From Ranitomeya imitator (lineage: Eukaryota), in assembly GCF_032444005.1 (NCBI RefSeq), contig NC_091282.1:1092626001-1092690000 (forward strand): 64,000 nucleotides of DNA. Direction: 5' to 3'. How positions within the stretch are numbered: the stretch's first letter is position 1; every line of letters starts with the position of its first letter. The notes beneath the pieces are model-generated. The model saw only the letters and a list, made by a program, of their open reading frames with translations, made no database searches and was not told the origin of the DNA. The position numbers and the translations under genes were made by a program. Shown here piece by piece: positions 22,672 through 29,439 of the stretch.

Positions 22672-23134
22672 TGTTAGGGTGGTCTGCAAGTCAGACCCTC
22701 AGGGATATTGGATGGCTGCCAAATGGGTGAGGTTTTCTCCGGAGAATGATGGACATGGACAGATGTGATATCTGATCAAGCCATAAAGTTTATTCCAGGA
22801 AGGACATTCAGTTATATACACTTTTGAGTAGGCGTATACATCATGTTCGTGCACAAATCAGCTGTTTATTACATATGAGATCATTTTTAATTAATCATGT
22901 TTATTCCTAATAAGGCAGAACTGTGGACAGGTGATTCTTACATAAAAAGGTAACTTGAGTTGAGACACGTAAGGGGCTAATGTCCTAAGTCCCCTTTCTT
23001 GATTAGCTTCTCCCATCTCAGCATTTCTAGAAGTCAACAAGATGACTTAGCAGAGTCCGGCATGTCTGGTCATATTCAGAGACATATGTATGAATTATGA
23101 GAACCCATTAAGGTGGTCCCTGGTTTCCCTATCA
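22672..23134 (-). repeat. ERV 3' LTR
   Basis: Preceded on the minus strand by polypurine tract TCTCAAAAGGGGGGAC (23150-23135). Confidence 0.95.
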
Positions 23135-23272
23135 GTCCCCCCTTTTGAGATTAGATATGATTCTACCCCTAACCCACAGGTGCTGTCACTGGCCTAATGC
23201 CAATGTCGGACTTTCTTGTCTATTTTTCTGCCGAATCCCCCACAGGATGGGGAGATCATATCCTATTCTCAA

Positions 23273-25243
23273 TCATAGCATTCGTTCATAATCATCATTA
23301 AGGGGTCTCATCTGCATGTACATAGTCTTTGTAATGGAAGTATCGATCAGTCTCTGGAGGAGCCCTCTGATGCAAGGTATGCAACAGCATCCGACGATCA
23401 CAAGTATTGCAGAGACGACGGCGAGAGAGATGAGGAAACTGGACACCAGGTGACTCCATTTTCCGAACCATGACTCGAGCCAATCAGTGAAGGGGTTGTC
23501 GATGCCCGAGTTCTCTGCCAGCTCCTCAGATAGTGATGTAAGACCCTCTAGTGCTTTAGTGATGCTCCCGTCTGGGTCTGTGTTGTTTGGGATGAAAGTA
23601 CAACAGTAAGTGCCAAACATTTTACATACACCTCCTTTCTCTGCTAGTAACATATCTAAAGCCATTCTATTCTGCCATGTCATTAAGGAAGTAGGGCCTA
23701 ATTGTTCTGCTATTCCTTTTATAGCATCTCTTGTATAATATATAAACCTTTGTTGATTATAATATATATAATTTATCCAATCCACATTCTTATTAAGGGT
23801 AACCCACCAGAAGAAAACTGACTCAAACCCTGCTGCGATCTGGTTCCTAGCTTTGTATTCATCTGGTACACCCCTAGGAACCCCTATGCTGTCTATGTAG
23901 ATCCTTGGGTCAAAGGATCCAGCAGGGGCTGATCTCTTATTTCTGCGTAGAGTATCAGCATTCAGTTTACCCTTTTGTATTTCTTCTGACGAGATTATTT
24001 GAAATGGCATGAGGATCTGTGTTAGGGCACAGGTGCCAGCCCAATCTGCTGGCAATCTGGCTCTAAGTTGCATGTCTCCACATATCCACCATATGTCACT
24101 CCTTGCTGCAGTCTGTCCCTTGAACCATTTAGCCTTGAAGCTCCCTGTATCTTGATCTATGGAAATGGCAGTGTCACAGAACTCAGACGTTAGGTATCCT
24201 ATGAATACTGTCTTCTCTGTTCCCGTCCCTTGTCTCTGGAAACAGGTGTAATTTCCCGGATATGCAAAAACTCTAGGGGGTATCTGATCCATTTTTACAT
24301 GCGGATGCAAAGCTGAAAGAGCATAACACAGAGCATTGTCAGAGGGGTCATATGCAGCATCATATAAGGCTAAAATGCATTGCAAGTCTGTTTGGTCTGG
24401 TTCTGAGGACATGAGAGGAATGGTCCCCAAGTGAGGTCTGGCAGTAGCACATGCAATACAGTTAGACTTATTATGCTGCCCTGCGGTGAATCTCATCCAC
24501 ATAAGCCATTCATTCCTTTCAGTATAGCCTGTTTCTATGGCCACTTTCCCCTCGTAGCTCACCTCCCCAAACATGTTGAATTTTGGCCTTTCTACTGTTG
24601 TTGCTTGGGGCTCCTTTCCTTCAGTCTTATTCTGCTGATGGATAGCCCTTAGCCAAAATTGTCCTAACTGAGCCCTTTTTCCCGGGGAATGTAGTCACAG
24701 TACATAAAGACCTTCGTCCACCCGAGAGGGTTCCCTAATGGTTACGAGAAGAGGATTACAGGGAAAGTTGTGAGGGTCCTCTGCCTTGCAATCCCACCTG
24801 GCTCCCCATAGTGTAATATACAGCCTGTCAAGGAGAGGCTCCCCTGATGCACTAAGGCTAGTTTTAGCTTCTTCTGGCTTATATCCCCATGGATTTCCTG
24901 TATTCCACGCTGCATCAGACCATGAAGCACAGTTCTCATTCCCTGGTCTAGTTACACAGATATACACCACAGCCCCTTCAACTGCCGTTATAAATTTATA
25001 ACTGGGATTATTACTCTTTTTCCCAAATTTAAGATTCCAGTGACATTTTACTATTTCACAAAAGTCAATTCTAAAGGTAGCCACTTTCTCAGAGGTATCA
25101 AACCAAATTGTTGGCATCCCCGATTCATCCCTAGTCAGCAAAGGCATAGTCGGTGTCCATTCTTCTTCTTGCTGTGAGGCTGTCAACATCATCAGGAGCA
25201 GGATTATCATTGTTCCACTCCCAGACAGTACACTGGCTTGCAT
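23273..25243 (-). pseudogene. env: Retroviral envelope (gamma-type SU-TM), full length with one in-frame TGA at 24697-24695
   Basis: The 182-aa and 433-aa ORFs share a frame and the 40 codons between them are open; signal-like MIILLLMML, CIAC (CxxC), furin site RNKR, ISD WQNRMALDMLLA, CKMFGTYCC (CX6CC), TM helix. Confidence 0.93.
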
Positions 25244-25249
25244 GCTTCC

Positions 25250-26493: not shown

Positions 26494-28954
26494 AAAGGCT
26501 ATACAATTTACAAAAACAGCAAAAACACAGTATTTTACAAGTACTCCTCCCCCCCTTTTGAATCCACTACCTTAGTGCAGAAGAGTAGCTGGATTCAAAC
26601 TCCAGGAAAGGGAAGAAAAAAATTTTCCTGGCACAGAGCCAAAAATTTAAAACTTCAACAACTTAACAACTAAGCAAAAGCAGAAAATTTTGTTCATAGG
26701 GCACCGCGTACTTGGGGCATAGAATCTATGTGCAAATTTTGGACAGTTGGCAGAGTGCCAATTCTTCGTACATTTACTGGGCTATCTTATCTGACACTCT
26801 TTTTTTTTTTTTTATTGCTCTCTGAGTTCTTTCAAACAACTTTCCTTTCCCTTCAACAATTTCTCTTATCAGTCCACAGTGAACATTTCTTTACAACTAT
26901 ATAGTTGTTCCTTCTTATCAACATGCTTATACATTCTAAATCAACATGACATTGCCCTCTATCGATCTGTCTCTGTGACAGGTTCTACATTTGAAATCCA
27001 CAGAGGAAAGCAAAGTGTTTTGCAATCTGGATGTAATCTTCTGGTCTCCCTCTGTTCAGGGGGCACCTGAATGGTATGTTACTGGGATACCATAGATTAT
27101 TGTCCTCTATGTGACTCAACAAGGTTCCCGGGGTCCACAAAATGGTCCCGTGAACGTTAAGTCGGAAACACTTCAACTCAGAGAATATTTCTGACAGAGG
27201 TCCAAACCCAGTGTTCTCTTGGCTATAGCCGGGATGTACCGTTTTTACGATCCACCATCCTTCCGGTGAAATGGCCAGCATCAGACCGACTCTGCAATCT
27301 GGGCACGACATCTACAAAATTTGTGCTGGGGGTCGGCCTTTTATAATGTTCCAAGTAATCCTAATTCCTATCAACCATGCAAATACAAAAAGTCCCAGAA
27401 AAACAAAAGCAAACCCTTCAGTACAATACAGATTAATGTACTTCAATGGTTGTTCACAATACTTTACACTATATTCCATATAAATAAAACATCAGAACCT
27501 ATATACGTATGCGTGTTAGAAAGGAGCTCTGTTTCTAACGCACATACGCTTGGCGTGAAGGACCTGACCATCTGGACTCTTCCTAAAACTTGCAGAACCT
27601 ACACAGAACCTGCAAAGCATTCAGCACAGTTGTTCACTTGCAGCCTCCCCAAATATCAGTTAGACAGGTAACAAATATTTGGTTTCAGCTCATCTCATAC
27701 ACATGTGACTGTGTTTCACTATTAGCGTTCCTCAGTTTTTGTCCTGGCACCAGTCGGCCAAGCACCACACCTAATTGGATTCCCTTATGCAAGCAGGATT
27801 TTTATGCTTAAATCCTCATTTATCATACATACGTCTTTCAAACGTCAAACAGGGAATCTCATATATCAATCATTCTCTTTCACACACAGTTATTCCACTT
27901 GGATAACACTAATTTCCTTTTTGCAGCTACCTGATTCTCACTGCCTGTCCTTATCTGTGTACTATGACCTGCTTCTCCTTGTTGCCTGATATCACCTCAG
28001 CGTCTTCTACTGTTTCTCTGTTATCTGCCACTCCTATCCCTGTGTTCTCTGGTTATTCTGACAATTCACTGTTCTCTAATGTGTAGCCTCTTATGGTGCC
28101 CACTTCTGATAGCCTCTTCTCTACTCTATGCTAGCACCCTAAATATCTACACTTTCTAACCTCCACCGTTTTCACAGTTCAGGTGTGCAGAAGCGTAATT
28201 CCCCTTCTCCACTCATTTTGTAACCTACGCTAAAGAACTCAGCAATAGGCGTGCGGACTGCGGGGATAATGATTAGTGATTTGGCCCTTGTGACCGCCGC
28301 AGCGTCACTCACTAATCCCACTGAGGCCTTCTGGTGTTATCTAAGGGCACCTCCTGCAGACTAACTATGGCATACACCGAAATTCTATATGCTAACCAGA
28401 GAACAGAACTAACTAGCGCAGGCAGATTTGATGTGGTCAGAGTCTCCTACTAAACGAGGGGTAGCTTGTGCGTACATACAAGGCAGGACAAACACAGATG
28501 GACTGACTGACCTCTGACCCAGGGTGCCCCTTAAGGGTCGCCGTAGGGAACTGTGGAGGCCCTATCGGATTCAACCGGCGTGTTAGACCGTATCTTTTTC
28601 ACCCGCCCAAAGGACGTCTCCTCATGGGTGAATTCACACACTCATGCACTCTTCAGTCATATGCTAGACATATTAACAAGACATATAACATAAAATTGAC
28701 CAATCCAATATGCCTTTTAAATATCACGTGGATATTCTATGGTTCTTTGCCAAACAATATGGACGGCCTTGTAAGCAGATCTTTTCTATAACATACCTAA
28801 GGCTCGGCGTGCAGATTATGAGACAGATGGAGACACAGAGAGATTTTGTAAGAATCTAAAGGTTCTTACCTTTTTCCGCGGATTGTCTGTGTGTCCTTGG
28901 TCTCAGGTCTGCGATGTGCCGGGCATCAGATATTGGTGATCTGCCATTGTGGCC

Positions 28955-28972
28955 GCCCACCCAGGGACGCCA
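28955..28972 (-). promoter_or_regulatory. Primer-binding site complementary to tRNA-Asn
   Basis: Minus strand TGGCGTCCCTGGGTGGGC, 4 nt after the 5' LTR; equals the complement of the vertebrate tRNA-Asn(GTT) 3' end GCCCACCCAGGGACGCCA (recalled sequence). Confidence 0.9.
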
Positions 28973-28976
28973 AAAA

Positions 28977-29439
28977 TGTTAGGGTGGTCTGCAAGTCAGA
29001 CCCTCAGGGATATTGGATGGCTGCCAAATGGGTGAGGTTTTCTCCGGAGAATGATGGACATGGACAGATGTGATATCTGATCAAGCCATAAAGTTTATTC
29101 CAGGAAGGACATTCAGTTATATACACTTTTGAGTAGGCATATACATCATGTTCGTGCACAAATCAGCTGTTTATTACATATGAGATCATTCTTAATTAAT
29201 CATGTTTATTCCTAATAAGGCAGAACTGTGGACAGGGGATTCTTACATAAAAAGGTAACTTGAGTTGAGACACGTAAGGGGCTAATGTCCTAAGTCCCCT
29301 TTCTTGATTAGCTTCTCCCATCTCAGCATTTCTAGAAGTCATCAAGATGACTTAGCAGAGTCCGGCATGTCTGGTCATATTCAGAGACATATGTATGAAT
29401 TATGAGAACCCATTAAGGTGGTCCCTGATTTCCCTATCA
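28977..29439 (-). repeat. ERV 5' LTR
   Basis: Five substitutions against the 3' LTR counted by eye over 463 bp. Confidence 0.95.

Follow-up and report, generated by a model that had tools for sequence, protein, structure and literature searches.

How can an endogenous retrovirus (ERV) whose gag and reverse transcriptase (RT) are gone carry a conserved env, and how was it copied? The question is raised by an element of 6768 nt on the minus strand (22672–29439) of a 64,000-nt stretch of the Ranitomeya imitator genome (NC_091282.1, positions 1,092,626,001 to 1,092,690,000), hereafter the window. The element showed the traits of a class I ERV, i.e., long terminal repeats (LTRs) with TG...CA termini, a 4-bp target site duplication (TSD), a tRNA primer binding site (PBS), and a polypurine tract (PPT). 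As the initial annotation of this sequence had reported, the LTRs differ only slightly (5 substitutions across 463 nt) and the TSD is perfect (GTGG at both flanks); in public contigs of the host repeat, 6772 nt are missing at the insertion site, equal to the element plus one TSD copy (6768 + 4). Probes from related elements gave no match to gag or to the RT core within the element, in agreement with the annotated lack of a gag or RT open reading frame (ORF). The LTR pair gives an age of 5.2 My (95% range 1.7–12.2) at the amphibian rate of 1.03e-9, as quoted in the available text of PMC12690878; given this age, the element is young only in a relative sense.

We searched the genome (5.96 Gb) for related loci. 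Only the best 40–150 candidates were scored in each search, and the counts given below are therefore lower bounds. The locus in the window is an ordinary decaying copy of a multicopy lineage, here termed lineage E, which has a sister lineage, termed lineage G, with the complementary genes. On balance, we consider it probable, by a small measure, that E spread by complementation with G, which kept gag-pro-pol but lost env and a small accessory frame, ORF-B.

Lineage E lost gag and RT long ago and was copied in that state

Lineage E comprised approximately 35 loci with closely related transmembrane (TM) regions of env. In 27 of the 34 projected loci, ORF-B, a spacer, and the pol relic ORF-A stood together, uninterrupted by gag or RT, and this gag-less build extended to copies just 74–83% identical. 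From the oldest through the youngest copies, gag, protease, and RT were missing, and the RNase H tree of the lineage had the shape of a ladder. These three observations indicate that the loss of gag-RT is old and that the defective form was copied throughout. Upstream stretches of three old loci contained no gag or RT either. The env gene and the pol relic were equally similar between copies (95–97% between the closest). Many independent insertions carried the same gag-RT deletion between intact LTR pairs, as in trans-mobilized ERVs, and the pairs of copies with the same build were 97.7–100% identical. The proposal in the initial annotation that a defective genome was copied in trans is therefore supported, and gene conversion is not needed to explain the LTR identity. 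A public contig of 2992 nt, from a run labelled with another organism, also spanned the gag-less core.

Three peculiarities were seen among these loci. A short insertion within the tRNA-Asn PBS was shared by six of the eight young E copies examined (L005, L006, L009, L010, L013, and L016), yet these were copied recently. Two loci (L098 and L135) had the E core joined to a third type of env, 30–50% identical to that of the window copy. One locus (L154) had three family LTRs in tandem at a spacing of 3438 nt, with an interior unrelated to the E or G probes.

Selection acted on env and ORF-B during copying

By maximum likelihood (ML), the ratio of non-synonymous to synonymous substitution rates (omega) was 0.315 for env (28 rows; 2ΔlnL 355 against omega = 1), 0.33 for ORF-B (39 rows; 2ΔlnL 75), and 0.80 for ORF-A (41 rows; 2ΔlnL 5), and it ranged from 0.69 to 1.44 in nine non-coding control frames; these estimates exclude a duplicate (L008) and all rows with less than 75% cover. 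In env, pN/pS was 0.15 for shared variants and 0.39 for singletons (21 rows). These values indicate that selection acted during copying and not after insertion. Selection on Env, as first postulated, was thus supported, and env had not degraded with pol at a dN/dS near 1, the contrary case considered in the initial annotation. Helper complementation was the best-fitting of the options it had offered.

The pol remains had been annotated as decayed RNase H and integrase fragments. They are indeed a relic, but ORF-A is a single ATG frame of 278 codons with one private stop. This stop, at codon 65, was absent from all 32 other loci, 14 of which had an ORF-A free of lesions; most of the youngest copies were frameshifted. 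ORF-A was also considered as a selected RNase H protein; this was rejected, as its omega equals that of the controls and frameshifts occur in most of the youngest copies.

The env frame of the window copy (657 codons) was as annotated, with CxxC (CIAC), furin (RNKR), immunosuppressive domain (ISD), CX6CC, and hydrophobic TM motifs and a single internal TGA at codon 183. It matched TLV_coat of Pfam (E=1e-10) as well as syncytin and other gamma-type Env structures. The 182 aa that precede the stop begin with a hydrophobic, signal-like stretch; the fragment stops short of CxxC, and downstream of its Met it lacks any N-glycosylation sequon. This TGA was found in 2 of the 28 env copies, and the second such copy belonged to another clade and was not locally closer to the window copy; the TGA as a family trait was thereby ruled out. 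Neutral decay over the LTR age predicts 0.45 env stops. Because only 2/28 copies from separate clades carry the TGA and 0.45 stops are expected, we regard it as a neutral lesion. Among the 20 copies fetched, env was uninterrupted in six, two of which represent one duplicated locus.

Sister lineage G carries gag-pro-pol, and its LTRs interleave with those of lineage E

Lineage G emerged from the ORF-A search in the form of long-framed elements with 71% identity, some of which adjoined LTRs that had already been found to match the window. The lineage, of about 30 loci, carried gag-pro-pol, and both gag (omega 0.44; 10 rows) and pol (omega 0.41; 19 rows) were constrained. Its env was reduced to the same 70–90-nt remnant (21 stretches), and ORF-B was found in none of 12 leader-to-gag junctions. 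G shared with E the tRNA-Asn PBS and a leader of approximately 1.4 kb, and its LTRs were mostly 78–88% identical to those of E. The PBS type was called as tRNA-Asn by ARAGORN in two of the three loci fetched by the PBS pattern.

The RNase H tree placed E (22) in one clade and G (19) in another, with 100/100 support and a divergence of approximately 25%. In the LTR tree, which comprised 20 E and 15 G rows after removal of 10 near-identical young E rows, the two lineages interleaved, with seven label changes, at least five of them forced by strong branches, and monophyly of G was rejected (p-AU 4.3e-5). Repeated LTR exchange is an established product of co-packaging and template switching in retroviruses (PMC6407205). 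LTR pairs of G were 96.8–99.4% identical, with one at 90.9%, a range that overlaps the older E pairs (97.7–98.9%), including that of the window copy. In two old, decayed loci (L120 and L147), E-type env was joined to pol or gag-RT of the G type, as expected from a common full-length ancestor. Taken together, E and G lost genes reciprocally, have cis signals in common, and show signs of co-packaging, as would a bipartite retrovirus.

Three G copies (G000 C1:421114874, C2:343915715, and C6:204782679) were interrupted at the same site, close to where env begins, by inserts that differ in size. This site is possibly the target of another element.

ORF-B is retained together with env

ORF-B, an intact frame of 108 aa, was overlooked in the initial annotation. 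Its best genomic matches had no internal stop in 44 of 45 cases, in a ranking that favours intact copies. An autonomous family, X, whose PBS and LTR differ from those of E, has a homologue of 111 aa (approximately 50% identical) directly ahead of gag, ending two bases ahead of the gag ATG. A word-index search for ORF-B homologues found none, but a profile run against 1.84 billion proteins had seven matches. These were Xen1_gp1 of the Xenopus laevis ERV Xen1 (CAD44572.1 / Q8AEW2; E=2.3e-5, and 41% over 54 aa in pairwise comparison), four unnamed Logan proteins, and two repetitive matches that were discarded (P0001 and P0005). The Xen1_gp1 frame presumably sits ahead of gag in Xen1. With Xen1_gp1-like small ORFs, ORF-B shares an invariant M-x-C-x-x-C start and an R-x-N-x-H motif; the conserved residues, i.e., CxxC, one His, and a later Cys, make metal binding possible.

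An AlphaFold2 model of ORF-B built on 15 diverse rows reached a pLDDT of 88.7 and a pTM of 0.82; with 12 close rows, the model had reached a pLDDT of just 45. ORF-B had no Pfam family, and no PDB match was obtained by sequence, Foldseek, or VIA-align, which does not prove a new fold. Its Xen1 homologue had no usable match in the Atlas. The best viral fold match to ORF-B in BFVD was Q8AEW1, a second uncharacterized Xen1 protein of 132 aa (E=0.022); this modelled similarity suggests that the two Xen1 small ORFs may be paralogues.

ORF-B was retained where env was retained (E and X) and absent where env was absent, i.e., in G and in an env-less family, Y (missing from 4/4 loci fetched). This joint retention suggests a role of ORF-B in infection. 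Leader ORFs of mammalian gammaretroviruses are said to raise infectivity in the available part of PMC6995185.

Other possible sources of Gag-Pol

Both X and Y contained long open pol frames, and full-length X copies were endogenized in the same genome. Family Y (L049–L056 and approximately 120 search rows) was large, with many open pol frames of 1224 aa, and gave no env match in the four loci fetched. In a third group, subfamily B, all ten copies fetched were family X elements with gag-pol replaced by the E core. The members of subfamily B (L021–L030, L158, and L159) are young, 7.3–7.7 kb in length, and consist of X LTR, leader, integrase end, and env around the E core (ORF-B and ORF-A) as the middle; a cut X-type ORF-B is retained ahead of the whole E-type ORF-B.

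Proposed complementation between E and G and its alternatives

Our explanation starts from what was observed directly: E and G have different sets of genes but LTR, PBS, and leader in common, selection is distributed over their frames as described above, and their LTRs interleave. A full-length class I ancestor with LTR, leader, ORF-B, gag-pro-pol, and env would have given rise to two reciprocal deletion lineages, E and G. In a cell expressing both, Gag-Pol would be supplied by G, and Env and ORF-B by E; both RNAs may be packaged via the shared leader and primed by tRNA-Asn, template switching would swap the E and G LTRs, and the particles would infect new cells, including germ cells. The env of E would be constrained because E needs an outside Gag-Pol and profits from Env only if particles infect new cells. 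Each copy would decay after insertion, and the TGA in the window is presumably such a lesion. We advance more tentatively, as plausible but short of probable, the wider proposal that E and G have formed a bipartite retrovirus for tens of My, in which G carries only gag-pro-pol and E only env and ORF-B (with its unmatched fold), the two being packaged together and exchanging LTRs without the need for a full-length virus.

Several observations weigh against complementation by G. No G stretch among those examined combined an uninterrupted gag with an uninterrupted pol. For the most recent E burst (LTR pairs 99.3–100%), no G copy with its LTR was found, the best G reaching 87–88%, and the 30 matches of at least 96% to the youngest E LTR were E proviruses or four solo LTRs. 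Of the helper with the same LTR and PBS that the initial annotation proposed to look for, G shows both signals and a constrained gag-pol, but no intact copy and no match to the youngest burst. Three LTR-tree rows labelled E (L018, L061, and L073) were 5'-truncated or rearranged. In older copies, divergence at four-fold sites was 0.095 in env and 0.195 in ORF-B, compared with 0.03–0.05 in ORF-A and 0.04–0.07 in non-coding sequence; this two- to four-fold excess of silent divergence is compatible with patching of the two genes by a divergent, full-length but unseen virus, or with cis constraint on the remaining sequence. Moreover, the structure of subfamily B demonstrates recombination of E RNA with X, an unrelated autonomous family, and G is thus not the sole possible helper.

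The excess silent divergence and the lack of a G partner for the youngest burst would both be accounted for if the helper were an unseen full-length parent, exogenous or unfixed. E would then be a satellite repeatedly patched with parental env and ORF-B, G would be an independent env-less offshoot, and both would have swapped LTRs with the parent and not with each other. In the available text of PMC10924933 and PMC6407205, competent elements are documented as the usual source of trans-complementation. However, no locus of comparable age joined E env to gag-pol among approximately 33 env-close loci and approximately 40 G-type stretches, several of which are truncated and cannot be judged; yet full-length X copies did endogenize here. 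No intact pol ever contributed a patch to the RNase H relic, and third-position distances in env tracked those of ORF-A (rho 0.92, 22 copies). We therefore consider such a parent unlikely, although it is the strongest of the alternatives.

Less likely still is that E is a promiscuous env-donating satellite that used whichever Gag-Pol was active (X, Y, and G at different times), with G in no special position. The ten of ten subfamily B copies in which the E core replaced the gag-pol of X favour such a satellite, as do the long open pol frames of X and Y and, again, the youngest burst without a G partner. However, the LTR, tRNA-Asn PBS, and leader are shared by E only with G, X having a different PBS and LTR, and it is with G that LTRs were exchanged repeatedly. 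For the last E burst, this alternative can be reconciled with complementation by G.

That the host co-opted the window locus, with the 182-aa surface unit (SU) fragment as a secreted receptor blocker like Refrex-1, is very improbable, despite the signal-like start of the fragment and the truncated ERV Envs that restrict infection in mammals in the available text of PMC9245640, because the stop occurs at the low frequency and in the separate clades given above and is as neutral decay predicts, the pol relic took one stop too, the fragment ends ahead of CxxC without a sequon, contigs over env match other copies, and in a multicopy family the conserved env is not a feature of a single locus. Neither the host co-option nor the secreted SU fragment suggested in the initial annotation was thus supported at this locus.

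Layout of the element and public contigs

The features of the element are collected in Table 1. Upstream of ORF-A, the sense strand has another purine run resembling a PPT (26546–26566), and this stretch was matched in G pol also. The insertion target (22000–22671 and 29440–30100) is a very high-copy host repeat that is abundant in RNA-like runs too, and contig junctions in this flanking repeat are not assignable to this locus.

The public runs behind the contigs are of guessed or unknown kind. Contigs covering env and ORF-A differed by approximately 4–5% from the window copy and therefore derive from other copies. Contigs from two studies terminated at 26442, beside the conserved AG, which is a weak hint of splicing; four runs had no or almost no cover over 26450–27400, and these carry no weight either way.

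Table 1. Features of the lineage E element, in window positions.
Feature	Position	Strand	Remarks
Left TSD, GTGG	22668..22671	.	within high-copy host repeat
3' LTR, 463 nt	22672..23134	-	
PPT	23135..23146	-	from sequence; precedes 3' LTR
Gamma-type env, 657 codons, internal TGA at 24697-24695	23273..25243	-	ATG at 25243, terminal TGA from 23275; family omega 0.315
Integrase C-terminus relic, overlaps env start	25230..25410	-	tblastn with related pol
ORF-A, 278-codon pol relic (RNase H and degenerate integrase start), private stop at codon 65	25657..26493	-	omega 0.80
Candidate splice-acceptor AG	26436..26437	-	kept in 32/32 covering copies; contig ends alongside (weak hint)
ORF-B, intact 108-aa pre-gag accessory ORF, Xen1_gp1 homologue	26985..27311	-	omega 0.33; invariant CxxC, His
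Leader, ~80% shared with env-less gag-pol lineage G	28016..28976	-	likely packaging region
Candidate splice donor	near 28870	-	kept in 19/19 covering copies
PBS for tRNA-Asn(GTT), common to E and G	28955..28972	-	
5' LTR, 463 nt	28977..29439	-	
Right TSD, GTGG	29440..29443	.	

Comparison with known systems

The usual view of defective ERVs is that they ride along with a complete helper, and when a provirus with dead gag-pol has a conserved env, this is commonly taken as host domestication. Lineage E would represent a third route, in which env is selected through the spread of the defective lineage itself, beside a sister with the complementary genes; it also advises caution in calling co-option from a single locus with intact env and dead pol. 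ORF-B adds an uncharacterized anuran ERV accessory protein that is tied to env, for which a role in infection is suggested, and is a target for structural and functional work. We found no report of a reciprocal pair of env-only and gag-pol-only ERVs in a search that misses most subscription papers and supplements, and catalogues of amphibian ERVs may hold these families.

Xen1, in which the small ORF is annotated as hypothetical, is a complete provirus of 10.2 kb, whereas E lacks gag-RT. Env-less ERVs were reportedly described as "superspreaders" by Magiorkinis in 2012. G has the same env-less, retrotransposing build, but it is no high-copy lineage (about 30 loci) and exchanges LTRs with an env-only sister. 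In the canid CfERV-Fc1(a), as described in the available part of PMC6407205, the proviruses of a single lineage have stops and an env deletion in common by inheritance; in E and G, the env lineage lost gag-RT wholesale, and LTRs are shared between lineages whose RNase H sequences differ by approximately 25%. The truncated Env of the window resembles Refrex-1 and other truncated-Env restriction factors, in the available text of PMC9245640, in having a signal peptide and N-terminal SU with a premature stop, but it differs in that the window stop gave no sign of fixation, selection, or expression.

The nearest likeness is to the trans-complemented morphs listed in the available text of PMC10924933, i.e., the D morph of bovine ERVK[2-1-LTR] complemented by C, ETn by MusD, IAP I-delta-1 by IAP, and recKoRV by KoRV-A. 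Like E, these are defective genomes with intact LTRs that are copied by the machinery of a related element, and they recombine; subfamily B repeats their pattern of a middle swapped for another retroelement. In the same text, however, functional genes are stated to be absent from the morphs, and their helper to be fully competent. The absence of functional genes that marks ETn and the D type does not apply to E, which has two genes under purifying selection (env, 0.315; ORF-B, 0.33) and whose nearest source of Gag-Pol lacks exactly those genes. Lineage E is thus a new form of trans-complemented ERV and, with G, possibly a naturally bipartite retrovirus.

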